Assembly: GCA_015056105.1 (NCBI GenBank)
Contig: SVGX01000003.1
Coordinates: 128 to 64,127, forward strand
Reading direction: 5' to 3'
From: Clostridiales bacterium
Lineage (GTDB): Bacteria; Bacillota; Clostridia; Christensenellales; CAG-138
Length of the DNA stretch: 64,000 nt
The notes below the pieces were generated by a model. It made no database searches. It worked only from the letters and a program-made list of their open reading frames with translations, and had not been told where the DNA came from. The position numbers and the translations under genes are program-made. This document shows positions 35,499-60,211 of the stretch, piece by piece (position 1 is the stretch's first letter; the number at the start of each line of letters is the position of its first letter).

Positions 35499-35663
35499 AA
35501 AACCGCGTGAAAAGGGATCATTTTAAGAGGATTGCGTTTTTCGCAGTCCTCTGCTCCGTTGGGAAACATGGAGCGTGACGGAATATGCCGCATCAAAAGC
35601 GTTCGGGATACCGCGTACAAGCGGCAGCGCCGCTGCGCGGGGCTATGCGGTTTTCGGGAGGTT

Positions 35664-36921: not shown

Positions 36922-38532
36922 ATGAAAAAAATCGTTGCCGCAAGTATCGTCCTCTGCCTTCTTCTTTGCCCGTTAACCGCTCTTGCCGCCGCCCTTACCG
37001 GCGTGAACATCAGCCAGACGGCACAGGCGGAGGATGCGCTTTATGTGTTCTTCGATGTGACCGATGAAACCGGCGCGCCCATTGCGGGCATCGGCGCGGA
37101 GGATGTGAGCATCTCCCTCGGCGGCCGGGATTTCGCGTCCAAAGTCGGCACGGTGGGCGGCAGCGGCCTTGGCGTGGGCTATGTGTTCGCGGTGGATATC
37201 TCCCGCTCGCTGAATGAAAAGCAGTTTGCCTATGTGCGCGAAGCCATCGGTGCGTGGATCGGCGCCATGGGCGAAAAGGATATGGCATCCATCCTCACCT
37301 TCGGGGATGAGATCACCATGCTCACCGATTTTACCGCCGATACCGATGCGCTTCTTTCCACCGTGGAGGGGATCTCCCCCACCGACGGCACAACGCAGCT
37401 GTATAACGGCATCATCCGCGCGCTGGATGTGGCAAAGCGCCAGAGTGCGGAGCTGCCTCTTCGCCGGGTGCTCGTCATCCTTTCCGACGGTATGGATGAC
37501 TATCCCGCCGGTGCCACCATGGCGGAGGTGACCGCCAAAGCGGAAGATGCGGGTGTTCCCATCTATGCGGTGGGCGTAAAGGGAAAAAACAACCAGAGCG
37601 AGCTCAACGAGCTTGGCAGCGTGGCAAGGCTTTCCGGCGGCGAGCTGTACCTGACGGAGCAGGACCAGCTGCGGGGTGGTTATGAGACCGTGTTTGACCG
37701 CATCCTGAACGGCTATGTGGCGGCTGTCGCCCTTGATGGCGCCGCAGCCGACGGCAGCGAGCAGGGGCTCATCCTTTCCGTGAAGCAGGGCAGCGTGTTT
37801 GTGGAGGATGGCGTGGATGTGCGTCTGAAGGCAGTGGCGGCAGCCACCGCAGCGCCGACGGAAGCGCCGGCAAATACTCCCGCGCCCACAAAGACGCCTG
37901 CGGCGATACCCACGACCGCGCCTTCGGCCCAAACGCCCAAGGCAAAGGGCGGCATGGCGCTGCCTGTTATTATTGCCGTTGCTGCGGCAGCGGCGGCAGG
38001 CATCGTGGTGCTCATCCTTTCCGCCAAAAAGCGCGGGGCGAAAAAGGCGGAGCAGGAGAAGCTGGAGGAGATCCGCCGCCGGCAGAAGCTGGATGAGCTG
38101 ATCGATGTGAAGGCGCCAAGGTCCGGCGGCAGCGCAACGGGTGTCCTTACGGACCGCACCGTGGCCCTTGATGATGAAAAGACCGTATCGCTGGGCGGCC
38201 CGCGGCAGCGGCGGCTCATGCTTTCCCTGGAGGATACGCGCAGCGGCGGCGAGCGCCGCTACACAGCGCCCATCGGCCGGGAACTGACGGTGGGCAGAAA
38301 GGCCGGCGAGGTGGATATCGAGATCCGTGACCGCTCCGTCAGCGGGCGGCACTGCGCCTTTGCGCTCAGAAATGAGCGGCTCTTCCTTTGGGATCTTAAT
38401 TCCACCAACGGCACTTATCTGATGACGCCGAAAGGAAAACAGCGCATCGGCGGCGAGGGCGCCCCGGTGAAAAACGGCGATGTGATCCTGCTTGGCGAAA
38501 CGGAGCTGGCGATTATCGTTTACGAGGATTGA
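36922..38532 (+). CDS. bitopic membrane protein: extracellular vWA domain (intact MIDAS), TM helix, cytoplasmic FHA domain
   Basis: Signal peptide; VFAVDISRS (DxSxS), GTTQLY and LSDGMDD for vWA; a P/T/A-rich linker; TM ALPVIIAVAAAAAAGIVVLIL. The FHA reads LTVGRKAGEVDIEIRDRSVSGRHCAF...DLNSTNGTYL, with the canonical GR, SxxH and NG residues. Confidence 0.8.
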   Translation: MKKIVAASIVLCLLLCPLTALAAALTGVNISQTAQAEDALYVFFDVTDETGAPIAGIGAEDVSISLGGRDFASKVGTVGGSGLGVGYVFAVDISRSLNEKQFAYVREAIGAWIGAMGEKDMASILTFGDEITMLTDFTADTDALLSTVEGISPTDGTTQLYNGIIRALDVAKRQSAELPLRRVLVILSDGMDDYPAGATMAEVTAKAEDAGVPIYAVGVKGKNNQSELNELGSVARLSGGELYLTEQDQLRGGYETVFDRILNGYVAAVALDGAAADGSEQGLILSVKQGSVFVEDGVDVRLKAVAAATAAPTEAPANTPAPTKTPAAIPTTAPSAQTPKAKGGMALPVIIAVAAAAAAGIVVLILSAKKRGAKKAEQEKLEEIRRRQKLDELIDVKAPRSGGSATGVLTDRTVALDDEKTVSLGGPRQRRLMLSLEDTRSGGERRYTAPIGRELTVGRKAGEVDIEIRDRSVSGRHCAFALRNERLFLWDLNSTNGTYLMTPKGKQRIGGEGAPVKNGDVILLGETELAIIVYED

Positions 38533-41600: not shown

Positions 41601-43566
41601 GGCCAATAAGGGGTATGAATACCCCGTCAGCCGGTATAACGCCAAGCGGCTGGAGGATTTCATGCTGCTGGCCGCCAAGGCGCAGGGCGTTGGTGATAAG
41701 GCAAAAACCCTTGATATCATCCGCAAAACCGCAGCCCTTGGCGGAATCAAACTGCCGGAGCTGAAGGAAAAGACCCAGCTTGCGGCGGTGGTGGAATACC
41801 TGAAGGAGCAGGCGGAAAAAAGCGGCATGAAGGCGGATCTGACGCTGTGGTTGCCGGTGCTGCCGGCGCGGCTGCACCTTGCGGAGCTTCAGGGCTTTGC
41901 GGGCGGTGCCTTCCGCAATGGCTGGCAGCCTGTTCTGCCCGGCCGCGAGTGGGAGCTGCGAGCCCCCGTGGGCCTTTGTGATGACCCGGTGAACCAGGCG
42001 CAGACGCCGGTGGAGGTGAACTTTGCGACCGATGGCCACATCGCCGTGTGCGGCATGGTGGTGAGCGGCAAAAGCACCTTCCTGCAGACGCTGCTCTACT
42101 CGCTGGCAAACCGCTATTCGCCGGAATATGTCAACTTCTATATCCTTGATTACAGCAGCAGGATGCTCGGCTGCTTCAAGGATCTCAAGCATTGCGGCGG
42201 CGTGGTCTTTGAAGACCGGAGCGACCGTACCGGCAAGCTCTTCGCCATGCTCAAAAAGGAGCTGGAACGCCGCAAAAAGCGCTTTGAGGGCGGCAACTAC
42301 GCCCAGTATGTGCGTGCCAACGGCCCCGTGGAGCCGGCGCTGCTGCTTGTGATCGACGGCTTTGCCAACTTTAAGGAAAAAACCGATAACCGCTATGAAG
42401 ATATGCTCATCGAGCTTTCCCGCGAGGGTGCCAATTACGGCATCTTCCTCGTGCTGTCGGCGGGCGGCTTTGGCGCGGCGGAGATCCAGAACCGCATCGG
42501 CGAAAACATCAAGACCGTGTTTGCGCTGCAGCTTGGCGACAGGCTCAAATACAGCGATACGCTGCGCCAGCGGGTGGATGTGATGCCGGAGGCGGATACC
42601 CTTGGCCGCGGCCTTGCGCTGGTGCAGGGAACGCCCCTTGAATTCCAGACCGCCCTTGCCCTTCCCGCAGAGGATGATTACGAACGGGCGGAGAAGATGG
42701 CGGCGGTGTTCGCGCGGATGAACGAAGCGTATCCGGGCAGGGGCGCAAAGCCCATCCCGGAGATCCCGGAAAAGCCCACTTTTGCTCTCCTGCGGGAAAA
42801 TGAGGGCTACAAAGTGCTGCTTGAAACGCCGGACCGCCTGCCCCTCGGCTACGTGGCGGCGGATGCGGATATTGCCGGCATCGATCTCAAACAATGCTTT
42901 ACGTACCTTGTGGCGGGGCAGGGCCGCACCGGCAAGAGCAATGCCCTTGCCTGCCTGATGCAGGCCGCCCATGACCGGGGCGGCAGCATCGCCGTGATCG
43001 ACAGCCGCAAAGGCGAGCTTGCCGCCATGGCGAAGGAGCTTGGCGCGCGCTATGTTTCCACCGAGGAAGAGCTTGCCGCCTTTGCGGGCGAGCTGTTTGA
43101 GCAGATGCGCGAGCGCAACAGCCTGAAGCGGGCGCTGCGGGCAAAGGGCGCGTCGGATGAGGAGATCTATGCGGCGATGCTCCAGTATCCCGCCTGCTAT
43201 CTCTTCATCGATGACATGGCGGAGCTGACGGAAACGCTGTATTCCGGCTCTGCGCAGATGCAGAACATCATCGGCTTTATGGAGAATTTCTTCGATAAGG
43301 GCGCGCTGCATAACATGTATGTGTTCGGCGCCGTGCCGCTTTCCGGCTACAGCATGGCCCTTGGCTACCGGGCTTTCCGCCTTGCGGCGGAACGGAAGAC
43401 CGGCCTGCTGCTTGGCGGCGATGCGGCGCGCCAGCAGCTGTTCGATCTTTCCGCGCTGCCCTATTCCGAGCAGACGAAGAAGTTCAGGCCGGGCATCGCG
43501 CTGCTGCCGCAGGACCATGAGCGGGAGCGGCCCGAAAAGATCGTGCTGCCCATTGCAAGAGGATGA
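38602..43566 (+). CDS. essC: type VII secretion FtsK/SpoIIIE-family ATPase EssC (YukB-like)
   Basis: 1654 aa. N-terminal FHA-like modules (LTVGKQEGCHIRYDFRGLVSKRHAVL...STNGVYVNG), 2 TM helices and three P-loop domains: GTTGSGKSE with VIVIDEFAEL, GMVVSGKST, and GQGRTGKSN with LFIDDMAEL. Confidence 0.9.
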   Translation: MRFVIMAYANGAYEEFRLPALNDADHEILLSAVRFGLKKDIALRFEVLSGEWKVLGGKGYALFDRQEQKEQLPLADELTFGVISGADHVTLIVTGEAESLPCFQKIDISRLRELTVGKQEGCHIRYDFRGLVSKRHAVLAREADGSMRLTDQSTNGVYVNGQRIQGARRLAFGDVINILGLKLVFLGDALGVYALGRQVEIDPRIHMPYVLPQSGEKQPPAEESRFKRAPRAVEELHREPVEIEAPPPPNKPKKQPLLLTIGPAFTMMIPMLLGSGMAIFSAGATGMGRSPFMFTGIITAVSSAAIGVMWALINMRHAKKQLREDELHRFNAYRDYLVRIADELNEQYRDNAKTLNDRYPSAEACLRYGADPTRLWNRNFTHDDLLFVRLGMGSMPFQVPIGIPKERFTLVDDSLSEKPKQIFDSFSTLRDVPVGVDLGADPLWGIYGGGSMAEGISVARSMAVQLAANTCYTDVKLVFLYEKQYEREFAFAKWLPHVWSEDKKVRYVASDKNEVSDVLYALGSTLRIRAEQENRRGAARPHYVVFVCDPDLLEGEPAAKYLLEPVEGLGVSTVLIAPGYEALPNSCTNLIERDKHFCGFYDVSTVESKKRAVAFDDVSAFEAERFARWLSGIRVKELESGGELADAVTFFDLYGVQSLAEFGVIDRWRKNRTYENMRALVGQKAGGADLYLDIHEKYHGPHGLVAGTTGSGKSETLQTYMLSLALNFSPLDVGFFVIDYKGGGMANLFSDLPHMLGQISNLSGNQVRRAMVSIKSEIKRRQRIFGEYDVNHLDQYTRLLKNGEAAVPIPHMVIVIDEFAELKREEPDFMRELISVAQVGRSLGIHLILATQKPAGTVDDNIWSNSKFKLCLRVQDKQDSMDMLKKPDAAYITRAGRCYLQVGNDEIFELFQSGWSGAAYDEDMAAAKAEVATMLSKTGQPSLVGNRSKLKWKEQKRLGWFSEIYDCILAAAKAENKSLDAILKDAHDKDAAVEAVFAMLANKGYEYPVSRYNAKRLEDFMLLAAKAQGVGDKAKTLDIIRKTAALGGIKLPELKEKTQLAAVVEYLKEQAEKSGMKADLTLWLPVLPARLHLAELQGFAGGAFRNGWQPVLPGREWELRAPVGLCDDPVNQAQTPVEVNFATDGHIAVCGMVVSGKSTFLQTLLYSLANRYSPEYVNFYILDYSSRMLGCFKDLKHCGGVVFEDRSDRTGKLFAMLKKELERRKKRFEGGNYAQYVRANGPVEPALLLVIDGFANFKEKTDNRYEDMLIELSREGANYGIFLVLSAGGFGAAEIQNRIGENIKTVFALQLGDRLKYSDTLRQRVDVMPEADTLGRGLALVQGTPLEFQTALALPAEDDYERAEKMAAVFARMNEAYPGRGAKPIPEIPEKPTFALLRENEGYKVLLETPDRLPLGYVAADADIAGIDLKQCFTYLVAGQGRTGKSNALACLMQAAHDRGGSIAVIDSRKGELAAMAKELGARYVSTEEELAAFAGELFEQMRERNSLKRALRAKGASDEEIYAAMLQYPACYLFIDDMAELTETLYSGSAQMQNIIGFMENFFDKGALHNMYVFGAVPLSGYSMALGYRAFRLAAERKTGLLLGGDAARQQLFDLSALPYSEQTKKFRPGIALLPQDHERERPEKIVLPIARG

Positions 43567-46196
43567 AAAAACATGATGCGGCGCCTTTACAGGCGCCGCA
43601 GCGGAGGATCACTGTGACAAAGCGTTATATCGCCGCCGCTTTGGCGGCATGCATGCTGCTGCTTGCGGGCTGCAGGAAGGGGCCGGAGCCGGCAGAGAAC
43701 CCATTCGATGCGGCAGCGGAGCTTGGCAAGGCCGAGCAGCTGTTTCTCGAAGGAAACTATGAAGAGGTGATCCTCACCCTTGAAACGGTGCTGGAGATCG
43801 AGCCTGCAAACGTGCAGGGTTATCTGCGCCTTTCGGACGCCTATCTGCTCCGCGGCGACAGGGAAAAAGCGCTGCAGCTTCTGCAAAAGGGCTTTGAATT
43901 AACGGGAGATGAGCAGATCGCCCAGCGCATCAAGGGCATGACGGAAGCGATCGAAGGCATTGTGCAGGTTTCCGGCGGCGATGAGGCATCAGCGCGGCAT
44001 ACGCTTCTTCTTAACGATAAGGGAGAGGTTTTCTTCATCGGCAATATGCAGCAGCGTGTCGGCGGCATCACCTATGATAACTTTGCCATGACGCCGAAAA
44101 AGATAGAGGGCCTGAGCAACATCCGCCGGGTCTTTGCGGGCAACCGCGGCTTCTTTGTGGGCAACTATGTGGATCTTGCCATCACCGAAAACGATGAGCT
44201 TTATATCTGGGGCCTTGATGCGGACAGGTTTTTTTCCGCCGATGACCACAACGGCAGCAAGCCTGCCCGGCTGATGGGGGATGTAAAGGATGCCTTCGTG
44301 GCGGATCACAACATTTATGTGATCAAAAACAGCGGCGAGCTTGTGGCCTTCGGCACAAACCATGACGGCCAGAAGGGCACCGGCAGCGCATATACGGAAG
44401 AGTTTTACGACCAGCAATGGATGCACGATTATGAGGAGTATCTGCGTGCCGCGCATGTGATGGACGGCGTTCAGAAAGTAAAGGCGGGCTTTGGGCGTTT
44501 TCAGGATGAACTTCTTGGCGATTCGGAAGGTTACTTCGCCTTTGCCCTTGATGAAGCAAACACCCTTTACGGCTGGGGTACCTTCGGCATTCGCGATGAG
44601 GGCGGCCGCATCGTAAAATGCTGCCTCAACGAGCCCACGGTGCTTGCAAGCGATGTGAAGGATATGGATGCCACCGGAAGCGATCTTTATATCGTGACCG
44701 CGGAGGGCAAACTGCAGAAAACGGAGCTTGAAGCCATCGGCAGGGATGGCCCCCTGTGGCAGGATATTGAGACCGGCACCGTGCCCATGGAAAAGGTATC
44801 CTGCGGCACTGCCCATTTTGTGGCGATGGATGCCCTCGGCGTGGTCTATACCGGCGGCGAAAACACGCTGGGCCAGCTTGGCGTGCCGGCAGAGACCACC
44901 GTGATGACCTATGAAGGCGAAAGCCTGAAGCCCCTTGGGGAAACGCGCTTTCTTGATGCGGTGGCATCGGATGAAAGCAGCTATGCCATCGATGGGAACG
45001 GCATGCTCCACTCCTGGGGCAACAACGATTGCGGGCAGCTTGGCAACGGCCGCAGGGGTCTGCAGAAAAATGCGGCCGAACCCACATTTTTGATGAGCGG
45101 CGTGAAAAGCACGCACGCCTACGGCGCGCGGGAAGTCTTTATCCTGATGGAAAACGGCGATCTCTATATTGCCGGCAGCGGCCATGTTGTGGAAAAGGTC
45201 ACCGGCGGCATGACGGAGGAAGCCTTTACCCCCGTTAAGATCATGGAGCAGGTCGCCATGGTGGAGCCGCAGGACGGCGGCGTGGTAAAAACCGACAACA
45301 CCCTTTGGCTTCCTACGGAAACCGGCTATGAAATGACCATGGAGGATGTGATCTTCTACACATCTTCCGATGAAAACAGCTTTGTGATCCGCGGCGACAA
45401 CAGCCTTTGGGGCTGGGGTAAAAACTATGGCGGGCAGCTGGGCCTTGGCTGGTACAACGATGTGGGCGCGGTGGAGGACAACTCCGTTTCGGAGCCCACG
45501 CACATCATGGACAACGTTGCCTCGGTATCGCTGATGTACAACGGCCCCTCCTCTATCGTGCAGGGCGGCGCCACCTTTATCCTCACGCTGGATGGTGCGC
45601 TGTACCATTGCGGCTACAGGGGGAACGCCACCATGTCAACGCCGGAAAATTACTGGGAACTTCCGACGGAAGCCATGTTTGCCCTTACACCGGAAAAGCT
45701 GGATGAGGATGTTGCCTATGTGTTCGGCTTCCGCGGTACCGATAAGATGTTTTATGTGAAGGAAAACGGCGAGCTCATCAGCTGGTCGGATTATACGGGC
45801 GGCATCTTCTATGACAGCGGGGCGCAAGATTATATGGAGAATGAGCACCGCAGCAGCATCCGCAGCAATGTCGCCATGGCGCAGGAGAGCATCCTTGTTG
45901 ACAGGGACGGAAAATGCTATATCTTCGGCGGACAGGTGATGGTAGGGTTCCTCGGCCTTGATGAAACGAAGTGGAAAGAAAAGGCAGCGGAATACGGCGA
46001 GGGCAAGCTCATCTGCCAGCTGATGCTGGAGGATGTGAAAGCTGTGGCCACATCCTGGGGCGGCGATGATGAAAGCTATTATGCCGTCAAAACCAACGGC
46101 GATCTTTATGTTTGGGGCAACAATATTTACGGCCAGCTGGGCCTTGGCGAAGCGGGCATCACCGAAAATATCTTTGCGGTGGCGCTCCCCGAATAA
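43563..46196 (+). CDS. lipoprotein with N-terminal TPR repeats and RCC1-type beta-propeller repeats
   Basis: ATGA overlap with the essC stop. Lipobox LLLAGC. TPR (EGNYEEVILTLETVLEIEPANVQGYLRLSDAYLLRGD). RCC1 signatures WGNNDCGQLGNG, WGWGKNYGGQLGLG, VWGNNIYGQLGLG and GENTLGQLG. Confidence 0.8.
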   Translation: MKKHDAAPLQAPQRRITVTKRYIAAALAACMLLLAGCRKGPEPAENPFDAAAELGKAEQLFLEGNYEEVILTLETVLEIEPANVQGYLRLSDAYLLRGDREKALQLLQKGFELTGDEQIAQRIKGMTEAIEGIVQVSGGDEASARHTLLLNDKGEVFFIGNMQQRVGGITYDNFAMTPKKIEGLSNIRRVFAGNRGFFVGNYVDLAITENDELYIWGLDADRFFSADDHNGSKPARLMGDVKDAFVADHNIYVIKNSGELVAFGTNHDGQKGTGSAYTEEFYDQQWMHDYEEYLRAAHVMDGVQKVKAGFGRFQDELLGDSEGYFAFALDEANTLYGWGTFGIRDEGGRIVKCCLNEPTVLASDVKDMDATGSDLYIVTAEGKLQKTELEAIGRDGPLWQDIETGTVPMEKVSCGTAHFVAMDALGVVYTGGENTLGQLGVPAETTVMTYEGESLKPLGETRFLDAVASDESSYAIDGNGMLHSWGNNDCGQLGNGRRGLQKNAAEPTFLMSGVKSTHAYGAREVFILMENGDLYIAGSGHVVEKVTGGMTEEAFTPVKIMEQVAMVEPQDGGVVKTDNTLWLPTETGYEMTMEDVIFYTSSDENSFVIRGDNSLWGWGKNYGGQLGLGWYNDVGAVEDNSVSEPTHIMDNVASVSLMYNGPSSIVQGGATFILTLDGALYHCGYRGNATMSTPENYWELPTEAMFALTPEKLDEDVAYVFGFRGTDKMFYVKENGELISWSDYTGGIFYDSGAQDYMENEHRSSIRSNVAMAQESILVDRDGKCYIFGGQVMVGFLGLDETKWKEKAAEYGEGKLICQLMLEDVKAVATSWGGDDESYYAVKTNGDLYVWGNNIYGQLGLGEAGITENIFAVALPE

Positions 46197-46217: not shown

Positions 46218-46466
46218 ATGATCATGGTGGATGTGCAGGTGCCGGCGCTGGATGCGTCCTATGATTTTTCCCTTTCGGAGCATGTGCGGGTCAGCGAGCT
46301 CATTGAGGAGATCGCCGAGATGATCTGCCAGCGGGAGAGGCTTCTTGCCCCGCGGGATATGGAAGGCTTCGCCCTTTGCGCCCCCGGCACGGGAGCTGTT
46401 CTGCCCAAGGGGCTCACCCTTTCCGAGTGCGGCGTGACAACGGGCAGCAAGCTGATGCTGCTTTAA
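46218..46466 (+). CDS. esaB: YukD/EsaB-like ubiquitin-fold T7SS protein
   Basis: 82 aa. VDVQVPALDASYDFSLSEHVRVSELIEEI...LSECGVTTGSKLMLL fits the EsaB/YukD pattern in size, beta-grasp periodicity and context. Confidence 0.7.
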   Translation: MIMVDVQVPALDASYDFSLSEHVRVSELIEEIAEMICQRERLLAPRDMEGFALCAPGTGAVLPKGLTLSECGVTTGSKLMLL

Positions 46467-46569: not shown

Positions 46570-46863
46570 ATGGATGTTTTTTTCTCGGCACATACCGGCG
46601 GTTTGCTGCAGGCGCAGGCGGAGTATGCCCGCTGCAGCGGCGTGCTGAGCGAAAAACTGCAGGAAGTTGAGCTTCTGAGCCGTCGCCTTGTCCCGATGAG
46701 GGGGCTGGAGGACTGCGCTGCGCAGCTGATCAAAAGCAAGGCGCAGCTGGAGGAAGCGCTTTTTACCCTTGGGCGGCTGCATGCCGTGCTGGAGGATGCG
46801 CTTACATCCTACCACGCCGCGGAGCGCAGCATCCAAGCGCGTTGCACCGATGGGGAAAGATGA
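46570..46863 (+). CDS. small helical-hairpin protein without WxG (T7SS-associated candidate)
   Basis: 97 aa with GAGGTG RBS, predicted all-helical with heptad-like pattern, and a C-proximal SYHAAE motif shared with neighbours. Confidence 0.55.
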   Translation: MDVFFSAHTGGLLQAQAEYARCSGVLSEKLQEVELLSRRLVPMRGLEDCAAQLIKSKAQLEEALFTLGRLHAVLEDALTSYHAAERSIQARCTDGER

Positions 46864-46923: not shown

Positions 46924-47229
46924 ATGGCAGGAGTCTTTGTTGAAGTCGATACAGCGCAGATGGAGCGGGATATTGAATCCGTAAAAGAGCGGCTTCAAGC
47001 GGTGCGCAGTGCGCTTGAAGCGGTATATGCGCAGATAGAAGAGCTGGACGCCATGTGGGATGGCCCCGCAAACGATGCATTCCGCAAACAGTTTGCGTCC
47101 GACCGGGAGGAGTTTGCTGCCATGTGCAAGGAGATGGACAGCCTCGTGGAAAGCCTGACTTACGCCAAGTGGGAATACGAAAAGTGCGAAAGCCGGGTGA
47201 ATGCAGCGGTGGCTGCTATTCGGGTCTAA
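46924..47229 (+). CDS. WXG100 family protein
   Basis: 101 aa with central MWDGPANDAF and C-proximal EYEKCE. Strong RBS. Confidence 0.75.
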   Translation: MAGVFVEVDTAQMERDIESVKERLQAVRSALEAVYAQIEELDAMWDGPANDAFRKQFASDREEFAAMCKEMDSLVESLTYAKWEYEKCESRVNAAVAAIRV

Positions 47230-47239
47230 GGAGGAAAGC

Positions 47240-47671
47240 ATGGAACACAAAGAGATCAACATCCCCTTTACCAACCCCGATTCCGGCAAGAGCCTGCTGT
47301 GGTTCCCGGAAAACCTGCTGGAGCAGATCGGCTCTGCCCTTACACACCTGAAAACAGCCACGATGACCATCCGTACCTCTCCTGAGGTAATGCAGGCAAA
47401 GGCTGCCGAGGTGCATACCGCTGCGGCGGAGATCCGCCGGGAGTTTGAAGATCTGATCCGCGCTGTGGAAAGAACATCCGCCTATTGGAACGGCAACGCG
47501 GCAGAGCAGCACCGCCGGCGCGCCGCTGCCATGAAACCCAAAGCGGAGGATATGATCGCCTGCCTTGAGCAGCATGCGGCAAACCTGCAGCAAATCGCAG
47601 GCCTTTATACGGCGGCGGAAACAAAGGCGAAAAGCACGAGCGCTGCACTGCCCACGGATGCCATCGAGTAG
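47240..47671 (+). CDS. WXG100-like protein with about 40-aa N-terminal extension
   Basis: Start after AAGGAGGAAAGC. YWNGNAAEQH motif, LYTAAE, and C-terminal tail ALPTDAIE. Confidence 0.7.
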   Translation: MEHKEINIPFTNPDSGKSLLWFPENLLEQIGSALTHLKTATMTIRTSPEVMQAKAAEVHTAAAEIRREFEDLIRAVERTSAYWNGNAAEQHRRRAAAMKPKAEDMIACLEQHAANLQQIAGLYTAAETKAKSTSAALPTDAIE

Positions 47672-47682
47672 GAGGAAAGCGG

Positions 47683-47997
47683 ATGAAAACGAAAGCCGAG
47701 ATCGAGTTCAATTTTGAACAGGCGCGCCGCAGGGCTGCAGAGCTGGAGGAGATCGCACAGGATCTTGAAAGCCTTGCCAAAAGGGATATGGAGAACACCA
47801 GGGCGGAGCTTGCCGCCGCCTGGAAGGGGGAGAGCGCACAGCTTTTCTGCGGCAAAAGCGATAAGCTGCAGCAGGATATCGCTTCAACGGCAAAGGAGCT
47901 TGCGGCCGTAGCCGGCTCCATCCGTGAGATCGCCCGCCTTGTTTATGAGGCGGAGATGCAGGCGCTTCAGATCGCCGCACAGCGGGACTATGTATAA
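47683..47997 (+). CDS. WXG100 family protein
   Basis: 104 aa with AWKGESAQLF motif. AGGAGGAAAGCGG RBS. Confidence 0.7.
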   Translation: MKTKAEIEFNFEQARRRAAELEEIAQDLESLAKRDMENTRAELAAAWKGESAQLFCGKSDKLQQDIASTAKELAAVAGSIREIARLVYEAEMQALQIAAQRDYV

Positions 47998-48094
47998 CGA
48001 TCGCTTCGGCGCGAAGCGATGAAGAGGAAACCGGCGCTCCTTTTAGGGGGCGTAACAATACAGAGACCATCAATCCAACAGGAGGAAGAGAACC

Positions 48095-48400
48095 ATGGCA
48101 AACGGATATGTTGTTACCACTGCAGCCCTTCGCCGCACGGCACAGGAGCTCAGGGATCTGAACAGCCAGTACAGGACCCGTGTGGAATCCCTTGCGGGCC
48201 TTGAGCAGGAGCTGCGCAGCATGTGGGAGGGCGAGGCAAACATCGCGTTTCAGCATGCATTTGCCAGCGATAAGGTAAACCTTGACAATTTCTATTCCGT
48301 CATTGAGCGGTATGTGCAGGCGCTTGAGACTGCTGCTGCGGAATATGAAAAGGCAGAAGCGCAGGCCACCCAGACCGCAACCACCCGCACCTATCGCTGA
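48095..48400 (+). CDS. WXG100 family protein
   Basis: 101 aa with MWEGEANIAF motif and EYEKAE. CAGGAGGAAG RBS. Confidence 0.75.
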   Translation: MANGYVVTTAALRRTAQELRDLNSQYRTRVESLAGLEQELRSMWEGEANIAFQHAFASDKVNLDNFYSVIERYVQALETAAAEYEKAEAQATQTATTRTYR

Positions 48401-48439
48401 TAGGGTGCAGCCGGAGCAACGAGCGAAAGGAGACAAATC

Positions 48440-48754
48440 ATGGATGGTATTTTGAAAGTAACGCCTGCTGCACTGCGGGCAAAATCCGGTGAATTCGATC
48501 AGAACAGGGCTGCTGTGCGCGGTCTCATCGAGCAGATGAATGCCAAGGTCAGCGGTATGAACTCCGTTTGGCAGGGCGATGCGGCCACGGCCTATCAGAC
48601 TTCCTATAACGGCCTTCGCGATGACATTGAGCGAATGGACCGCATGATCGCCGAGCATGTGCGCGATCTCAACGAGCTGGCGGATGTTTATGCCAGGGCG
48701 GAGAGCGCAGTGGAAGCTGCCGCGCAGGCGCTTCCCAAGGATGCGATCCAGTAA
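48440..48754 (+). CDS. WXG100 family protein (most EsxA-like member)
   Basis: 104 aa. ILKVTPAALRAKSGEF..., VWQGDAATAY with W at residue 44, VYARAE, and C-terminal tail ALPKDAIQ. Confidence 0.8.
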   Translation: MDGILKVTPAALRAKSGEFDQNRAAVRGLIEQMNAKVSGMNSVWQGDAATAYQTSYNGLRDDIERMDRMIAEHVRDLNELADVYARAESAVEAAAQALPKDAIQ

Positions 48755-48838: not shown

Positions 48839-50743
48839 ATGAAACGGATGATCATAGCCGCCCTGCTGGCAGTGGCTGCGTTTCTTTGTGCTGCATGCGG
48901 CCTGTTTCGGCCATCGCCGGAAAAGCAGCTGGGACTGCTTCTGGAGGATGCGGAGCGGCTCGAGCTTGCGGGCAATTATGAAGAGGCCGTTCTCAAATAT
49001 GAAGCTGCCATTGTGATAGAGCCGAAAAATGCGGCGCTTTATGCTGCTGCGGCTGCCGCCTATACCGAGATCGGCGACCGGGAAAATGCCGAAAAACACT
49101 ACAAGAACGCGATCCAATGCGAACCCGGCGCTGCAGAGCATTACCTTGCGCTTTCAGCGCTCTATGCCGCCGATGGGGATACGGGCGGTGCGGCGAAGGT
49201 ACTTCAGGCGGCGCATGTCGCCATACCGGAGGATGCTGACATCGTAAAGGGCATCAATGCCCTTGCGGAGGCAGCCTTCAGCCATTATCTCAACGAGCGG
49301 CTTTTGCCGCAGCGGGGACTTTCCTCCTTCTTCACTGTGGATATGGGCGGTTGGTTTCCCTGGCGGGCAGACGGCCTGATCGGCGCCTGCCTGTTCGATC
49401 TTGATCTTGACGGCATCGATGAGATGCTGCTGTTTGAGCATACCCTTGCCAACGATAAGACCGCACCCGCGGCGGGATACCGCACGGGAGAGTATGCACA
49501 GTATCTGGACGAAGGCACCGTGATACGTGTTTATGCCTATGAAGGCGGCATGGTCACGCAGAAGTCCTATATTATCCTGCCCAATGATTATTCCATCCAT
49601 GCGGAGCTTTTCCTTATCAAAGGGCAGGGGAAATGCTGCTTTGCGTTTTACCGGGAGGACAGCGAACACTATGATGAAATGGAAGTCTTTGCCTATGCGG
49701 AGCGGGGGCTTGAAACCGTTGTGGGGTATACCGCTTACGCGGGCGGCGTCGAAGCCTGGACCACAGGCGCAGAGCTGTTTCCTGCGGATGCGGCACTTCT
49801 TCGGGAATTTCAGCCCGGGGATGGAGACAGCGCACCTTATCTGCTGTTTACGATGCGGCAGTCGGAGTATGACTGGGATGAGATCATGAGTTATGAAGAA
49901 TTTGAAGCATCGCAGAAATACCCGGGCGTGCAGTCTGCTCTTGATGCACTTCTTCGCCCCATCGGCTTGAAAGCGCATCGTGATGCGAACTATGGCAGCA
50001 GCGGCGAAGTGCGTTTTTCCGCAATGCAGGGATACCAAAGGATCGATCTTTTGCGTGAGGTGCGTCCGTCCGATCAAAGCTGGGATTTTATCACCGACGG
50101 GCACCGCGATGTGCTTGGCGATGCTGTGCGCTGGCTGCCCCTTGGATCGGCGTCGGCGGATCCCAAGGATATGCGCGGCCGTGCGCTTGCCGCTTATGCG
50201 GCGCTTCTTCGCAGCGGCCCGGAGCTTTATGAGGGGGAAGGCTATTCCTATTCCCTTCTGCTTGATGCTTTTGCCCTTGTGGATATCAACGGCGACGGGA
50301 TAGAAGAGCTGATCGCCGGCGAGGTGGACGATCACCCATACGACGGCGTCATTTCGCAAGAGCCGAATGTGGACAACGTCAACATCTATACCTATACGGA
50401 TACTGGCATTCGTTTGCTGGATTCGGTCTTTATCTGCGCGCTGGAGCATGAGGGTACGGATAAACTCGACCTTGTGGACGGCTGCAGGCTGCTCACTTAC
50501 AATTACGGCACTTCGGGCTATCAGGGCTACTATTTCGGCGAATGGGATGGGACGGGCGAGCTTGTCTGGACGAGGTACAGCACATACCTTTCCGGTGATT
50601 ATGATAACGAGGTGACGGTTTATGCCCTTAACGAAGAGCCCATCAGCGAGCAGGAATTCAACAGCATGCCAATGGGCGATACGGTGCCCGTCAGATTTTA
50701 TTACAACAACGAAACGACCCGCGCGGAACTGCTCGGGGAGTAA
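48839..50743 (+). CDS. lipoprotein with TPR repeats and DxDxDG-type (FG-GAP/VCBS-like) motifs
   Basis: Lipobox FLCAAC, TPR (AGNYEEAVLKYEAAIVIEPKNAALY...), then FDLDLDGIDEMLLF and VDINGDGIEELIAG. Start trimmed to the ATG at 48839 after GGGGGAG. Confidence 0.65.
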   Translation: MKRMIIAALLAVAAFLCAACGLFRPSPEKQLGLLLEDAERLELAGNYEEAVLKYEAAIVIEPKNAALYAAAAAAYTEIGDRENAEKHYKNAIQCEPGAAEHYLALSALYAADGDTGGAAKVLQAAHVAIPEDADIVKGINALAEAAFSHYLNERLLPQRGLSSFFTVDMGGWFPWRADGLIGACLFDLDLDGIDEMLLFEHTLANDKTAPAAGYRTGEYAQYLDEGTVIRVYAYEGGMVTQKSYIILPNDYSIHAELFLIKGQGKCCFAFYREDSEHYDEMEVFAYAERGLETVVGYTAYAGGVEAWTTGAELFPADAALLREFQPGDGDSAPYLLFTMRQSEYDWDEIMSYEEFEASQKYPGVQSALDALLRPIGLKAHRDANYGSSGEVRFSAMQGYQRIDLLREVRPSDQSWDFITDGHRDVLGDAVRWLPLGSASADPKDMRGRALAAYAALLRSGPELYEGEGYSYSLLLDAFALVDINGDGIEELIAGEVDDHPYDGVISQEPNVDNVNIYTYTDTGIRLLDSVFICALEHEGTDKLDLVDGCRLLTYNYGTSGYQGYYFGEWDGTGELVWTRYSTYLSGDYDNEVTVYALNEEPISEQEFNSMPMGDTVPVRFYYNNETTRAELLGE

Positions 50744-52958: not shown

Positions 52959-52982
52959 GCGGCGGGAGAGGAGGGCTATACC

Positions 52983-54654: not shown

Positions 54655-56958
54655 ATGTCGGATATTCGCGATTTTGAGCCGCTTTTTGGCGAGTGGAAAA
54701 TTGAAGAAAAGCTTGGTGCGGGCAGCTACGGCAGCGTGTACAGCGCCGTGCGCACGGAGTTTGGCCGGGAATACCGTTCCGCCATCAAGCATATCAGCAT
54801 CCCCATCGGTCGGGATGAGCTCAACAGCATTTATGAAGAGGGCTATGCTTACGATGAAAACAGCGCCCGGCGGTATTATCAGCAGGTGCTCGTAGGGCTG
54901 ATCGAAGAGATCGAGCTGATGGACAGGCTCAAGGGCAACACCAACATCGTGGCCTATGAAGATCACAAGATCATCGAGAAAAAGGATATGCCCGGTTACG
55001 ATGTGTTCATCCGCATGGAATTGCTCAAAAACCTGCACCGCGCGCTGGGCAGCGGCCCCATCACGCCTGCGGAGGTATGCCGCCTTGGCATCGATATCTG
55101 CACGGCACTGGAGGTGCTCGGTAAGGAGCATATCGTGCACCGCGACATCAAGCCTGCCAACATCCTTGTCAATAACCTTGGCGATTATAAGCTGGCGGAT
55201 TTCGGCGTGGCAAGAAAGATGGAGCGTACCACCACCGTGATGAGCGTGAAGGGTACCTATACCTACATGGCGCCGGAGGTCTTCAAGGGCGAAGCGGCAG
55301 GCCCGGGGGCGGATATCTATTCTCTCGGCATCGTGCTGTACCGCCTGCTCAACAACAACAGGGCGCCTTTTGTCAGCGTCAATGCGGCGGAGGTCACCCC
55401 CACGGATAACGAGACTGCACTTGGCCGCCGGATGCGGGGCGAACCGCTGCCAATGCCCGCCCATGCGGATTCATGGCTCGGCAGCATCATCCTTACTGCC
55501 TGCGCCTTCCGGAAAGAGGATCGCTTCCTGTCGCCTACCGCCTTTAAACGGGCGCTGCAGGAATATCTTGCAAGCGGCGCCGCAGGCAAGGCTGCCACAG
55601 CTGCCGCACCGGCGGAAACGCCCTACGATAAGACCACAAAGCTTGACCCTACTGCCTATGGGCAGCGGAGTGCGGCGGATGAAGCGAAGCACAGGGCAGC
55701 GGAAGCGAAGAGCAAGGCCGAAGAAGAGAAAGCCGCAAAAAAGAAAGCGGCCGCTGCACGGGCGCAAAAAGAGGAAGCGGAAAAAGCCCGCCGCTATGCG
55801 GCTGCGGCAGATGCCGCAAAGCTGAACCGCCCTTCAAAGGAGCCCCTTCGCAGGCCGCAAACGCCGGAGGATGCCGCTGCCTCTGCCAAAATAGAAGAAA
55901 CAAGAAACCGAAAGGCCAAAAGGACGATGCTTTGGGCCATGCTGCCCTGTGCGCTGTTTGTAGCGCTGATATTATTGGGGAGATTACTGGCACAGCATTT
56001 TTCGGATAACATGAAAACGGAAACGACTGCGGGGGCGGCAATATCCTTTACGCCTCCTTCACAGGCTGTCGAAGCACCTGTTTCCACACCCGAACAGCAG
56101 AAACCTGCATTCAGCATCGATGAAAACAGCATTGTGCTGGCCCGGGGGCAGGAGCATGCGGTGGGCCTCCGTGCGGACGGCACGGTGGTTGCAGTCGGCG
56201 GCAGCCATGGCCAGGATGAGGTAGATACCTGGCAGAATGTGGTTTCCGTTGCGGCAGGAACTTTCCACACGGCGGGCCTTCGTGGGGACGGCACGGTGGT
56301 TGCGGTGGGTTCTGAGTGGGCATGCAAAAATGTGGCGGACTGGGAAAACGTGACCGCCATTGCCGCAGGCGGGGATTATACCGTTGGCCTTAAAAAGGAT
56401 GGCACTGTGGTAGCTACCGACATGGAGGGCCACGGCGCATGCGATGTGGCGGACTGGCGGGATATCGTGGATGTGGCGGCTGGCTATTGCCACACGGTCG
56501 GCCTTCGCGCGGACGGTACCGTGGCAGCGGTAAGCAATATTGACAACGAAGCGTGTGATGTTGCCGCATGGCGGGATATCGTGGATGTGGCGGCGGGCGA
56601 ATTTTCTACCTTTGGTCTTCGTGCCGACGGCACCGTGGTCATGGTGGGAACCGCCACCGAGATGACCAAGGAGCAGATCGCAGCGCTGCAGGGCGTGGCG
56701 GCCATCCATGCGGATAGCGAGCATGTTTTCGCCCGGCTGCAGGACGGCACTTCCGTGATCATATCGGACAATAAAGAGATACAGCCGCTTTCCGGCAGAC
56801 AGGATGTTGCCTTTGTTGCGGGAAAGTATGATATCTCCCTCCTCCTTAAAACCGACGGCACGGTGGAGCTTCTTTGCAGCCAATATGTGACGGAGGAAGA
56901 AAAGGCATATTTTGCGGAAGTTCTGAACTGGCGGCTGGCCGTACCGGGCAACAACTGA
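54655..56958 (+). CDS. Hanks-type Ser/Thr protein kinase, TM helix, extracellular RCC1-like beta-propeller repeats
   Basis: GAGSYGSVY, AIKHI, HRDIKPANIL, DFG and MAPE; a K/A/E-rich linker; TM MLWAMLPCALFVALILLGRLLA. Then 5-6 repeats of AAGxxHTxGLRxDGTVVAVG. Confidence 0.85.
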   Translation: MSDIRDFEPLFGEWKIEEKLGAGSYGSVYSAVRTEFGREYRSAIKHISIPIGRDELNSIYEEGYAYDENSARRYYQQVLVGLIEEIELMDRLKGNTNIVAYEDHKIIEKKDMPGYDVFIRMELLKNLHRALGSGPITPAEVCRLGIDICTALEVLGKEHIVHRDIKPANILVNNLGDYKLADFGVARKMERTTTVMSVKGTYTYMAPEVFKGEAAGPGADIYSLGIVLYRLLNNNRAPFVSVNAAEVTPTDNETALGRRMRGEPLPMPAHADSWLGSIILTACAFRKEDRFLSPTAFKRALQEYLASGAAGKAATAAAPAETPYDKTTKLDPTAYGQRSAADEAKHRAAEAKSKAEEEKAAKKKAAAARAQKEEAEKARRYAAAADAAKLNRPSKEPLRRPQTPEDAAASAKIEETRNRKAKRTMLWAMLPCALFVALILLGRLLAQHFSDNMKTETTAGAAISFTPPSQAVEAPVSTPEQQKPAFSIDENSIVLARGQEHAVGLRADGTVVAVGGSHGQDEVDTWQNVVSVAAGTFHTAGLRGDGTVVAVGSEWACKNVADWENVTAIAAGGDYTVGLKKDGTVVATDMEGHGACDVADWRDIVDVAAGYCHTVGLRADGTVAAVSNIDNEACDVAAWRDIVDVAAGEFSTFGLRADGTVVMVGTATEMTKEQIAALQGVAAIHADSEHVFARLQDGTSVIISDNKEIQPLSGRQDVAFVAGKYDISLLLKTDGTVELLCSQYVTEEEKAYFAEVLNWRLAVPGNN

Positions 56959-56994: not shown

Positions 56995-58956
56995 ATGAAA
57001 CCCTACGAACAAACTTATCAGATCCTCTCCACGCTGGGACGCGGCGGCATGGGCGCGGTGTATCTTGTAAAGCACCTGCGCCTCGGCACGCTGTGGGCCC
57101 TTAAGGAGATCGATAAAACAGCCGGCGGGCAGGTGGACCTGCTTGCGGAAGCCAACATGCTCAAGCGGCTTTCCCATCCGGCGCTGCCCCGCATCATCGA
57201 TATTTATGAGGATGCGGCGAGCATCTATATCGTGGAGGATTATATCGAGGGCGTCAGCCTGGATAAACGCCTTCGCGAAGCGGGCAGGTTCCCCGAAAGC
57301 ACCGTGCGCCTTTGGGCGGAGGAGCTTTGCGGCGTGCTTCGCTATCTGCACGAGCAGCAGCCCAACCCCATCATTTACCGGGATATGAAGCCCGGCAACG
57401 TGATGATCACGCCGGATAACAAGGTGAAGCTCATCGATTTCGGTATCGCCCGGGAATTCAAACAGGAAAGCAGCGGCGATACCACCAGCCTCGGCACCCT
57501 TGGCTATGCGGCGCCTGAGCAGTACGGCACCGCCCAGTCCGATGCAAGAACGGATATCTACAGCCTTGGCGTAACGCTTTACCATGCCGTGACCGGCAAA
57601 AGCCCCAAGGATCCACCCTATGAGCTTCTGCCCATCCGCCGCTGGGATGCTTCCTTCTCGGAAGGGCTTGAATACATCATCGCCAAATGCACCCGCACCA
57701 ACCCCAATGAGCGCTACCAAAGCATCGCGCAGCTGCAGGCGGATCTGAAGAATATCGACCGTTTTTCTGCTTCAAGCCGCAGACGAAAGGCGGTGGATGC
57801 GCTCAAACTCACCGCCTGCGCGCTCATGATCCTCGGCGGCGCTGCTTTTATGCTGGCGGGCTATGCCCAAAAAGGCGTTGAAGCGCAGGAAGCATACCGT
57901 GCCCGCTATGAAGAAGGTATTGCGCTGGTGGAAGCGGGGGATATGGATGCGGCCCGCCTTGCGCTGACGGATGCGGATGCTTCCCTGCCCGGCAGCACGG
58001 ACGGCCGCTGCGCTTATCTTGCGGCGCTCATCAATGCGGATGAAACAGCCGCTGCGGCTTCCTTCGGCGCGGAGGCTCTCTCTAAAGATGCCGCTCTTGA
58101 ACTGGATGCGCGCTTCAACTACTATTACGGCGTGGCGCTCGAAGCGGAGGGCAACATACACGGCGCTGTTGCGTGCTTTGAAAACGCAAACATGATGGAG
58201 CCCGGGCAGCTTCTCTATATGCGCTCCCTTGCCCGCGCCTACGCGGCGGCGGGAGAACTGGACCTTGCCAATGCGCTGTTCTCGGAGATCGCCATCATGG
58301 CGGATAACGGCACCACTGCCTTTGTTTATGCCGGCATTCTTGAGGCACAGGGCGAAGCGGAACAGGCGGAAACGGAATATCGCCGCGCCATTGAGAACGG
58401 CACGGATGAGGATATCCGCATCGCCGCGTTTAGGGCGCTTGCCACCATGCTGAGAAGCGGCCGCGAAGGGGATCCTGCCCTTGTGGAAAAGGAGATCGAA
58501 ACGCTGCTTTCCATGCAGCGCACCTTCCCCGATAAGGAGGAGGCCTTCATCCTTGAACGGCTGGGCGAAGCCTATTTCGCAAGAGGCGTTCTGAGCGGCG
58601 CGGAAGCGGATCTTGAAGCGGCGGCGGACAGCTTCCGCGCGCTGATCGACCTTGGCTACGGCCGCGCCAGCACCTATCTCAACATCGCCGTGATCGAACA
58701 GCGGCGCATGGATTACGCTGCGGCGGAGGAAACGCTGCTGACGCTTCTTGACCGCTATCCCAACAACGGGGATGGCTGCATCCAGATGGCGTTTCTCATC
58801 GCGGAGCGGGAGGGGCAGAAGCCCCAGAGCGAGCGCGATTATGCTCCCGTGGTGGAATATTACGAGCGGGCAAAGCTTTGCGGCGCAGCGGGTGCGAACC
58901 TGCAGCGGCTTGAAGGCGTGATAGAAGACCTGAAGTCCGGCGGCTGGATAGCGTAA
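56995..58956 (+). CDS. Hanks-type Ser/Thr protein kinase, TM helix, extracellular TPR repeats
   Basis: GRGGMGAVY, ALKEI, YRDMKPGNVMI, DFGIARE and AAPEQ; TM LTACALMILGGAAFMLAGYA; then TPR-like helical repeats. Confidence 0.85.
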   Translation: MKPYEQTYQILSTLGRGGMGAVYLVKHLRLGTLWALKEIDKTAGGQVDLLAEANMLKRLSHPALPRIIDIYEDAASIYIVEDYIEGVSLDKRLREAGRFPESTVRLWAEELCGVLRYLHEQQPNPIIYRDMKPGNVMITPDNKVKLIDFGIAREFKQESSGDTTSLGTLGYAAPEQYGTAQSDARTDIYSLGVTLYHAVTGKSPKDPPYELLPIRRWDASFSEGLEYIIAKCTRTNPNERYQSIAQLQADLKNIDRFSASSRRRKAVDALKLTACALMILGGAAFMLAGYAQKGVEAQEAYRARYEEGIALVEAGDMDAARLALTDADASLPGSTDGRCAYLAALINADETAAAASFGAEALSKDAALELDARFNYYYGVALEAEGNIHGAVACFENANMMEPGQLLYMRSLARAYAAAGELDLANALFSEIAIMADNGTTAFVYAGILEAQGEAEQAETEYRRAIENGTDEDIRIAAFRALATMLRSGREGDPALVEKEIETLLSMQRTFPDKEEAFILERLGEAYFARGVLSGAEADLEAAADSFRALIDLGYGRASTYLNIAVIEQRRMDYAAAEETLLTLLDRYPNNGDGCIQMAFLIAEREGQKPQSERDYAPVVEYYERAKLCGAAGANLQRLEGVIEDLKSGGWIA

Positions 58957-60116: not shown

Positions 60117-60211
60117 CGGTTCGCCATAAAATCGAAACAACACCGATAAAGCAGCAATTTGTAACAGCAGAACTGTGGCGTTTGCAGCTTGATCATACAC
60201 GGAGGGATCCA

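Follow-up and report, generated by a model that had tools for sequence, protein, structure and literature searches.

Several forms of type VII secretion system (T7SS) with components of protein phosphorylation have been described. Garrett, Higginson and Palmer (2024; PMC11217815) reported kinase, PPM phosphatase and FHA parts in novel T7SS subtypes, the kinase of one of them (TsjD of T7SSj) having a C-terminal domain of tetratricopeptide repeats (TPR). In the H1 type VI secretion system (H1-T6SS) of Pseudomonas aeruginosa, TagQ-TagR act upstream of the Thr phosphorylation carried out by PpkA-PppA-Fha1 (PMC7817224). Beta-propellers of the BLIP-II type, for their part, consist of seven repeats of ~39 amino acids (aa) that form three-stranded blades, and are distantly related to RCC1 (PMC4617170). 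Here we analyse a stretch of 64,000 nucleotides (nt) from a Clostridiales bacterium (contig SVGX01000003.1 of assembly GCA_015056105.1, positions 128 to 64,127), referred to below as the window, which contains a T7SS island. The gene following essC in this island encodes a predicted lipoprotein in which a short TPR domain, the handle, precedes two tandem RCC1-like propellers. A preliminary description of this DNA had proposed that the gene is translationally coupled to essC, and that its product shares a ligand with, or directly touches, the extracellular propeller of one of the membrane kinases of the island (kinase 1). The features of the locus are collected in Table 1; related loci and homologous proteins carry our own numbers (L and P, respectively).

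The locus is an EssC-type T7SS, as it encodes an EssC ATPase and WXG100 proteins. The gene upstream of the lipoprotein had been named essC, and rightly so: its product scores 1030 bits with TIGR03928 (T7_EssCb_Firm), for which the cut-off is 778. TIGR03930 matched the WXG100 protein encoded at 48440-48754 (56.9 bits, cut-off 44.85) and scored just below that value, 44.1, on the one at 46924-47229; PF06013 was found in all five WXG100 orthologues and PF08817 (YukD) in the yukD orthologue. No match to the EssA, EssB or EsaA families was obtained among the locus proteins scanned with Pfam and NCBIfam. By domain content, which includes equivalents of TsxC, TsxB, TsxA, TsxD, TsxF and TsxJ, rather than by EssC phylogeny, the island resembles T7SSe and T7SSj. 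It shares with them an FHA-bearing ATPase, a YukD-like protein, WXG100 proteins, a membrane Ser/Thr kinase, a PPM phosphatase and a separate FHA protein, and its kinase 2 has a TPR C-terminal domain like the T7SSj kinase. The FHA protein of the window, however, is a membrane VWA-FHA protein, whereas TsxJ of T7SSe/f/j is a cytoplasmic DUF6382-FHA protein; the window also has five WXG100 genes. The work describing T7SSe and T7SSj (PMC11217815) reports no lipoprotein, TPR-handle family or RCC1 component, the only propeller in it being TsgL (DUF5050) of T7SSg. The FHA domain of the VWA-FHA protein keeps the GR, SxxH and NG motifs, and that of EssC has GK, SxxH and NG. A Pro/Ala/Thr-rich linker lies between the VWA domain and the second transmembrane helix of the VWA-FHA protein.

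The lipoprotein, 860 aa long from the start codon established below, is laid out as a signal peptide, a 10-residue linker, three TPRs (residues ~30-112, ~80 aa) and ~720 residues of beta structure. Its signal sequence, MTKRYIAAALAACMLLLAG followed by C, contains the lipobox LLLAGC and fits the charged n-region, hydrophobic h-region and [LVI][ASTVI][GAS]C criteria; the lipobox Cys is invariant in the alignment of 16/16 family members. From these features the protein is predicted to be exported by Sec, processed by Lsp and lipid-anchored through Cys20 at the outer face of the cytoplasmic membrane of what is presumably a single-membrane bacterium (a close relative is annotated as 'Clostridia bacterium'). 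The Pfam profiles TPR_19 (29.8 bits, curated cut-off 25), WD40_RLD (PF25390; 241.2 bits, cut-off 150, E 2.7e-71), RCC1_2 (PF13540; 86.6 bits, cut-off 22) and RCC1 (PF00415; 69.3 bits, cut-off 21.7) all recognise it, and the signature WGxNxxGQLGxG occurs in three exact copies, at residues 468, 601 and 834, and in two partial ones. The lipobox, TPRs and several RCC1 signatures noticed in the preliminary description are thus all present, and the repeat-aware profiles that it had suggested are above cut-off both on the lipoprotein (RCC1 and RCC1_2) and on the ectodomain of kinase 1 (RCC1_2).

The AF2 model of the lipoprotein (pLDDT 74.6, pTM 0.70) contains ~53 strands. In Foldseek comparisons, the RCC1-like domains of UVR8, HERC2 and RPGR match half of the beta region (E 1e-18, TM-score 0.65-0.71, ~400 columns), tandem double-propeller proteins align along the whole protein, and a profile of the family matches UVR8 in the PDB at E 1e-48. 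The blades are four-stranded, 50-60 aa long and canonically RCC1-like, with UVR8 and HERC2 as best PDB matches. We read the modelled beta region as two tandem RCC1-like propellers with ~14 blades, a count which, like the boundary between the propellers, is approximate. The protein would then share the seven-bladed propeller and the GxNxxGQLG signature with the RCC1-like domains of RCC1, UVR8, HERC2 and RPGR (PF25390/PF00415), but it differs from them in being bacterial, predicted to be lipid-anchored and extracytoplasmic, and in carrying two tandem propellers behind a TPR handle. Nothing about it points to a guanine nucleotide exchange or photoreceptor function. Its propellers are longer than those of BLIP-II, being of the canonical RCC1 type.

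Among 5.8 billion proteins we found 15 full-length homologues (816-862 aa), each with a lipobox, a TPR handle and tandem RCC1 propellers, beyond which there is a sharp fall in score, down to that of generic RCC1 proteins. P0001 is 96% identical to the window lipoprotein and the other fourteen are 32-37% identical. A pattern scan for the family handle in 185,579 species-representative genomes returned no member, the single match being an unrelated TPR protein in a metagenome-assembled genome of Bacteroidetes. When the 115-aa handle was compared with 1.84 billion cluster representatives, most matches were multi-repeat TPR proteins and only approximately nine clusters matched N-terminally, as one stretch with an identity of at least 48%, a result which supports, by sequence comparison, the narrowness of the family. 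The family is so far known from three lineages of uncultured Clostridia, and each of the 15 full-length members read in context lies in the same type of T7SS island.

The gene order of this island, with genes found in some loci only given in brackets, is VWA-FHA, EssC, (LytTR regulator and 225-aa protein), (TPR lipoprotein), TPR-RCC1 lipoprotein, YukD, a 97-122-aa protein, five WXG100 genes, a variable group (PdaC-domain protein, 47-aa RCC1 remnant, one or two TPR-RCC1 paralogues, TPR lipoproteins), p447, p271 lipoprotein, Mbeg1-like/DUF2974, (TPR lipoproteins), kinase 2, a small open reading frame (ORF) and PP2C. Each locus has one to three copies of the TPR-RCC1 lipoprotein, plus 47-aa C-terminal remnants, and one copy is always the gene directly upstream of yukD, which the five WXG100 genes follow; in the relatives this copy is not adjacent to essC. 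The 47-aa ORF (L001 9792-9935; L005 16507-16650; L008 1393-1536) is placed directly after the PdaC-domain gene and matches only the C-terminal blade, at 63% over 38 aa; it looks like the remnant of a displacement or recombination. The preliminary description had held that free absence of the lipoprotein gene from homologous essC loci would speak against it. We found the gene in 3/3 lineages whose EssC is at least 75% identical to that of the window and not in 21.6 kb of the L013 locus (EssC 46% identical), which was the only distant locus compared, with flanks of 10 kb on each side. Since L013 keeps all the other shared genes, namely those for the kinase, EssC, LytTR, YukD, five WXG100 proteins, VWA-FHA and PP2C, the lipoprotein is a clade-specific accessory of the T7SS island and not a core component.

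The two parts of the lipoprotein have evolved differently. Within the family, mean pairwise identity is 77% in the handle, 38% in the propellers and 73% in the last 40 residues. Three classes of propeller can be told apart (the window protein and P0001; P0002-P0011; P0012-P0015), only 25-31% identical to each other, and the class of the window is missing from the relatives compared. The identity of the lipoprotein to those of other loci (32-37%) is low beside that of other window genes to their relatives (EssC 75-79%, VWA-FHA 65-69%, WXG100 51-85%, kinase 2 71-77% in L008 and L014, PP2C 61% in L008, Mbeg1-like 50-56%), and is in part to be read as ancient paralogy, reflected in the three classes, rather than as rate. 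Between lineages, synonymous differences in the handle are saturated (pS 0.63-0.83) while nonsynonymous differences are few (pN 0.08-0.18; omega ~0.05-0.10), and since both hold together the handle is kept by strong purifying selection and not merely by recent copying. In comparison with the close relative, omega was 0.08 for the handle, 0.31 for the propellers and 0.08 for the 3' end of essC. Overall positive selection on the propellers was rejected, because 0.31 denotes relaxed constraint or fast evolution and does not exceed 1.

Two adjacent paralogues in L001 have 100% nucleotide identity from ~-100 to ~+365, a region spanning the ribosome-binding site, signal peptide, lipobox and handle, after which identity drops steeply to ~55-65%. 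This pattern is that of a gene-conversion breakpoint at the junction between handle and propellers and places recombination, as read from the alignment, at that point. A related lipobox-TPR handle, in which the motif G(D/N)YEE..I...IEP.N recurs, also heads other lipoproteins of the islands, among them the second one of the window, whose C-terminal domains differ.

The list of ORFs gives the lipoprotein gene as 43563..46196 on the + strand, and its ATG does overlap the TGA of essC (ATGA), as had been pointed out. What did not stand is the use of this ATG as a start codon. An in-frame GTG at 43614 is preceded, with a spacer of 6 nt, by a perfect Shine-Dalgarno sequence. In the 97.4%-identical relative L011 (GCA_017398525.1, contig JAFQFU010000089.1), the junction reads GGATAAAAT: there essC ends in TAA, the overlapping ATG has become ATA, the GGAGG-N6-GTG arrangement is retained, and NCBI annotates the lipoprotein in its 860-aa form. 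A start of the form M-K/R-R, ~20 residues ahead of the Cys and 17 codons downstream of ATG 43563, is found in 15/15 homologues, and a GC-rich hairpin falls within the supposed N-terminal extension from that ATG. Because all of these agree, the gene begins at GTG 43614 and the overlapping ATG is not its real start; the gap to essC is therefore 47 nt and the lipoprotein gene has its own ribosome-binding site. The 877-aa form that begins at the ATG on the source contig, L015 (JGI 3300031555), was set aside as an artefact of gene calling. The proposed translational coupling falls with the overlapping start, which is ATA in L011 and lies upstream of the starts of the homologues. With the same orientation and only 47 nt between them, essC and the lipoprotein gene are probably co-transcribed, without being coupled by overlap. 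The hairpin has no T-tract on the + strand and is thus not a + strand terminator, and on the - strand it scores as terminator-like; it may act as an element of mRNA processing or stability, or modulate translation.

Kinase 1 has an intact kinase domain (Pkinase 127 bits; HRDIKPAN, DFG and APE motifs), a transmembrane helix at residues 426-447 and an ectodomain whose RCC1_2 repeats score 77.5-87.6 bits against a cut-off of 22. The propeller repeats described earlier are therefore there, but instead of five or six blades we count seven repeats of ~38 aa, forming three-stranded blades. The AF2 model of the ectodomain (pLDDT 87.6, pTM 0.85) has BLIP-II (1jtd_B; TM-score 0.69-0.74, rmsd 2.7 A) and CRINKLY4/ACR4 (7a0j) as best structural matches. 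Kinase 1 is like these proteins in having seven three-stranded repeats of ~38-39 aa, with an identity of only 15-26%, and in ACR4 too the propeller is joined to a kinase through one transmembrane helix. Between the propellers of the lipoprotein and of kinase 1, the best BLASTP match had an E value of 1.1, and a profile-profile comparison linked them with a probability of 97% at 11% identity. They are related at the superfamily level only and belong to different subtypes, canonical RCC1-like in the lipoprotein and compact in the kinase. Structure prediction had been proposed as a way to tell whether the two ectodomains share a fold; the models agree on seven-bladed propellers of the RCC1 superfamily for both, so that the shared fold is upheld by prediction and the subtypes are set apart.

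Of the candidates scored, 2209 matched the ectodomain module of kinase 1 at E<=1e-5, and the module occurs in fusions with a wide variety of unrelated domains. Selection of kinase 1 orthologues by homology to the ectodomain was abandoned, since short, generic proteins with RCC1_2 repeats dominated the search, and conservation was judged instead by walking out from the neighbouring Mbeg1-like gene. No kinase 1 orthologue is present in L008 or L014, the related lineages that are both sequenced across this interval. In them the space between the Mbeg1-like gene and kinase 2 is occupied by TPR-handle lipoproteins, the slot which kinase 1 takes in the window. Since L008 and L014 lack kinase 1 and retain kinase 2 and PP2C, kinase 1 is lineage-specific, and kinase 2 and PP2C are the conserved switch. 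The island kinase of L013 (3061-5973, 970 aa) has a PQQ_2/BamB-like propeller ectodomain in place of the TPR one, and TPR-handle lipoproteins are absent from the 21.6 kb of that locus. A DUF4176 gene, of a family known from T7SSb loci, lies downstream in the L013 locus.

We tentatively favour a reading in which the lipoprotein is a trans-acting binding module or sensor, docked through its handle, that feeds the kinase/PP2C/FHA switch; we consider it possible and still well short of probable, the contrast between propellers in trans and in cis coming from very few loci. The short linker would hold the lipoprotein at the membrane surface, and the handle would dock on a conserved extracytoplasmic element of the island, the candidates being the ectodomains of kinase 2 (TPR; 61% conserved) and of the VWA-FHA protein (VWA; 75%). 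The exchangeable propellers could then bind a variable ligand in the space between membrane and wall, and their occupancy would be relayed to a Thr-phosphorylation switch composed of kinase 2, PP2C and the FHA domains of EssC and VWA-FHA, which would gate secretion. Kinase 1 would be an independent version with the propeller fused in cis, rather than a partner for the lipoprotein. This picture of propellers in trans or in cis agrees with the contrast to L013 and with the fact that kinase 1 sits in a slot taken by lipoproteins elsewhere. The TagQ-TagR pair offers a parallel, in that an envelope lipoprotein and an extracytoplasmic partner stand above a Hanks kinase, a PP2C phosphatase and an FHA protein by which secretion is gated. 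It belongs to another secretion system and to a double-membrane envelope, and the analogy is one of working and not of family membership. Several points weigh against the docked sensor. The kinase 2 ectodomain (61%) is less conserved than the handle (72-77%), and docking to kinase 2 or to VWA is pure inference. The correlation between kinase ectodomain and lipoprotein amounts to one contrast, of three close lineages with one distant locus, within flanks of 10 kb. The confidence of the lipoprotein model is moderate, as are the certainty of its ~14 blades and of the boundary between its propellers, both approximate in AF2. Finally, non-identical copies, remnants and recombination are equally a hallmark of T7SS immunity arrays (PMC13560087).

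A more specific version, to which we give a rather low probability, is that the lipoproteins are modular sensors which plug into the kinase or VWA-FHA by a shared TPR handle and carry swappable heads, propellers or others, that recombine at the junction. If it were true, strains could change which cue, from the envelope or from a competitor, leads to Thr phosphorylation of the FHA partners and to the firing of EssC, and the island would hold a functional equivalent of the TagQRST-PpkA pathway of the T6SS with swappable sensor cassettes.

The pattern of copies that the docked sensor has to accommodate might also arise from immunity. The lipoproteins could neutralise, at the membrane surface, envelope-acting T7SS exports of the cell itself or of rivals, and we regard this as unlikely, though worth weighing. 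Several non-identical copies, variable in number, with remnants and a breakpoint, are the pattern of immunity genes (PMC13560087, PMC11217815). The immunity gene arrays of Staphylococcus aureus T7SSb, those of the lipoprotein Til1/TilA (DUF576) and of Til2 (DUF1433), likewise encode extracytoplasmic, membrane-tethered proteins in a variable number of non-identical copies, with pseudogenes, at recombination hotspots beside T7SS substrates (PMC13560087); Til1/TilA works in this way on the lipase TslA. The predicted site of the window protein, extracytoplasmic and close to the membrane, would suit such a role. The propeller would serve as a tight protein inhibitor, for which BLIP-II (PDB 1jtd/3qi0), a propeller of the RCC1 superfamily and a proven picomolar enzyme inhibitor, is the model, and the island itself contains the gene of a candidate lipase effector (Mbeg1-like/DUF2974). 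Yet the Til proteins are small, single-domain and have a shown cognate lipase toxin, whereas the window protein has 860 aa and a conserved handle; with two propellers it far exceeds known immunity proteins in size, and beta-propellers had, as Zhang et al. 2012 noted, not been found among these (PMC3482391). We found no gene for a polymorphic toxin in the vicinity, where the WXG100 proteins are 51-85% identical and p447 is evenly conserved; the Mbeg1-like protein already adjoins a lipoprotein of its own, p271, in a pair that is found outside T7SS loci as well; and strong purifying selection on the handle would be unexpected in a pure immunity role. A structural or assembly accessory is, in our estimate, about as improbable. 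The lipoprotein would be a scaffold at the exit of the EssC channel that partly replaces the missing EsaA/EssA/EssB functions, in the manner of TsgL, and its variability would come from exposure to phages or from differing cell-wall chemistry. The fixed copy between essC and yukD throughout the clade, the lack of EssA, EssB and EsaA matches among the locus proteins scanned, and a conserved handle that implies a conserved partner are all in line with it, as is the listing of a propeller protein among the core components of T7SSg (PMC11217815). That protein, TsgL (DUF5050), is like ours a beta-propeller conserved in a non-canonical T7SS cluster, but it belongs to another propeller family and another subtype and is not described as a lipoprotein, multi-copy or variable. 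Moreover, L013 does without the lipoprotein in the 21.6 kb compared while keeping EssC, YukD, five WXG100 proteins, VWA-FHA, kinase and PP2C, and a variable copy number with three deeply divergent classes is unusual for a stoichiometric part of a machine.

We think it quite improbable that these are passenger genes, that is, surface proteins binding for example glycans or nutrients, which have merely come to lie at the variable slots of a mobile island and play no part in the T7SS. TPR-handle lipoproteins do occupy three variable slots of the island, recombinase and integrase genes flank it in L008 and L015, and surface proteins of bacteria commonly have RCC1-like propellers. Against this stand the confinement of full-length members with readable context to this island type, the failure of the pattern scan to find the family in the species-representative genomes, and the fixed place of one copy directly upstream of yukD. 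Least probable of all is the original proposal, in which kinase 1, by a shared ligand or by contact of the propellers, would control the T7SS by way of the lipoprotein. Both ectodomains are propellers of the RCC1 superfamily and both genes are co-oriented in one island of the window, but L008 and L014 keep lipoproteins, kinase 2 and PP2C and have no kinase 1, BLASTP reveals no specific similarity between the two propellers, and the kinase 1 module is generic and very widespread. With propellers of different subtypes, no coupling, and kinase-bearing L013 lacking the lipoprotein, the pairing of the lipoprotein with kinase 1 finds no support and should be dropped.

Taken singly, RCC1 propellers, TPR lipoproteins and T7SS variants under kinase control are already known. 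In the searchable full-text literature we found no paper that links RCC1 propellers or TPR lipoproteins to a T7SS. As far as that literature shows, the architecture of lipobox, TPR handle and tandem RCC1 propellers is new, and so are its exclusive linkage to a T7SSe/j-like island and its cassette-like evolution. The T7SS subtypes with kinase, phosphatase and FHA components were described only in 2024, and the present family is a candidate for their extracytoplasmic parts and triggers. If the handle docks on the kinase or on VWA-FHA, the signal that fires a Gram-positive T7SS could be asked for directly. Should the lipoproteins neutralise effectors instead, they would to our knowledge be the first propeller-type, handle-anchored immunity family.

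Table 1. Features of the T7SS island in the window (positions are those of the window)
Feature	Position	Strand	Basis
VWA-FHA membrane protein, extracytoplasmic VWA and cytoplasmic FHA	36922..38532	+	Pfam VWA, FHA; hydropathy (signal/transmembrane 19-37, transmembrane 364-382)
essC, T7SS FtsK/SpoIIIE ATPase with N-terminal FHA, 1654 aa	38602..43566	+	TIGR03928; Pfam FtsK_SpoIIIE and FHA
ATG overlapping the essC TGA, not the real start	43563..43565	+	ATA in L011; homologue starts
GC-rich hairpin between essC and lipoprotein gene, 10-bp stem, 4-nt loop	43577..43600	+	-22.9 kcal/mol, z -2.7; kept in L011
Shine-Dalgarno GGAGG, 6 nt 5' of GTG 43614	43603..43607	+	Sequence; kept in L011
TPR-handle/tandem RCC1 lipoprotein coding sequence, 860 aa from GTG	43614..46196	+	Pfam; lipobox; homologue alignment; L011 junction
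Predicted lipoprotein signal peptide, MTKRYIAAALAACMLLLAG then C; lipid-anchor Cys is residue 20	43614..43673	+	Lipobox L-A-G-C
TPR handle, residues 30-112, best-conserved part of the lipoprotein	43701..43949	+	Pfam TPR_19; identity; omega
RCC1-like propeller region 1, boundary approximate	43950..45053	+	WD40_RLD E 4e-31 alone; AF2 strands; Foldseek UVR8/HERC2, ~400 columns
RCC1-like propeller region 2, with conserved last blade and C-terminus (residues 821-860, 46074-46193)	45054..46193	+	WD40_RLD E 3e-24 alone
YukD/EsaB-like ubiquitin-fold protein	46218..46466	+	Orthologues PF08817; NCBIfam match weak
Five WXG100 genes (46924-47229, 47240-47671, 47683-47997, 48095-48400, 48440-48754)	46924..48754	+	TIGR03930; PF06013 in orthologues
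Second lipoprotein, related lipobox-TPR handle, different C-terminal domain without family match	48839..50743	+	Pfam; handle comparison
Kinase 1, Hanks kinase, transmembrane helix (55927-55992) and seven-bladed BLIP-II/CRINKLY4-type propeller (repeats ~56137-56877)	54655..56958	+	Pfam; AF2; Foldseek
Kinase 2, Hanks kinase, transmembrane helix and TPR ectodomain; conserved island kinase	56995..58956	+	Pfam
PP2C/PPM phosphatase	59316..60116	+	Pfam PP2C

Further genes of the island and its borders are of interest. The 97-aa ORF at 46570-46863, between yukD and the first WXG100 gene, is 35% identical to relatives of 120-122 aa and has no family match. The protein encoded at 50776-52119 (p447) is soluble, its hydropathy profile showing no transmembrane segment, and matches no family; all related islands encode it, at 33-55% identity, its relatives ending in a Gly-rich C-terminal tail, and it could be an unrecognised conserved component or substrate of the T7SS. 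Its candidacy as a polymorphic LXG-like toxin paired with the lipoproteins was rejected, because it is evenly conserved along its length. Next to it, at 52143-54632, lie the genes for the lipoprotein p271 and for the Mbeg1-like/DUF2974 alpha/beta-hydrolase (549 aa, hydrolase match at 112-214), a pair also found outside T7SS islands on Lachnospiraceae-type contigs (L009 9122-11629; L010 9204-11635). By analogy with TslA-TilA, the two may represent a 'reverse' lipase toxin and its lipoprotein immunity partner. Searches of PDB sequences with the Mbeg1-like protein and with p447 gave nothing significant, the best match being a T6SS lipase effector at E 0.15 for the Mbeg1-like protein. Immediately upstream of the island, at 33336-36506, are the genes for a sortase and for a surface protein that has a thioester domain (TED), a signal segment at its N-terminus and a hydrophobic segment at its C-terminus; these are probably not part of the T7SS, since relatives have TPR proteins in that place. 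At the other end, beyond PP2C and p855, we observed a tyrosine integrase in L015 (19143-20264) and a serine recombinase in L008 (17281-18930); p855 itself (60182-62749 in the window) is not conserved in L008. These observations suggest that the distal edge of the island borders on mobile DNA.

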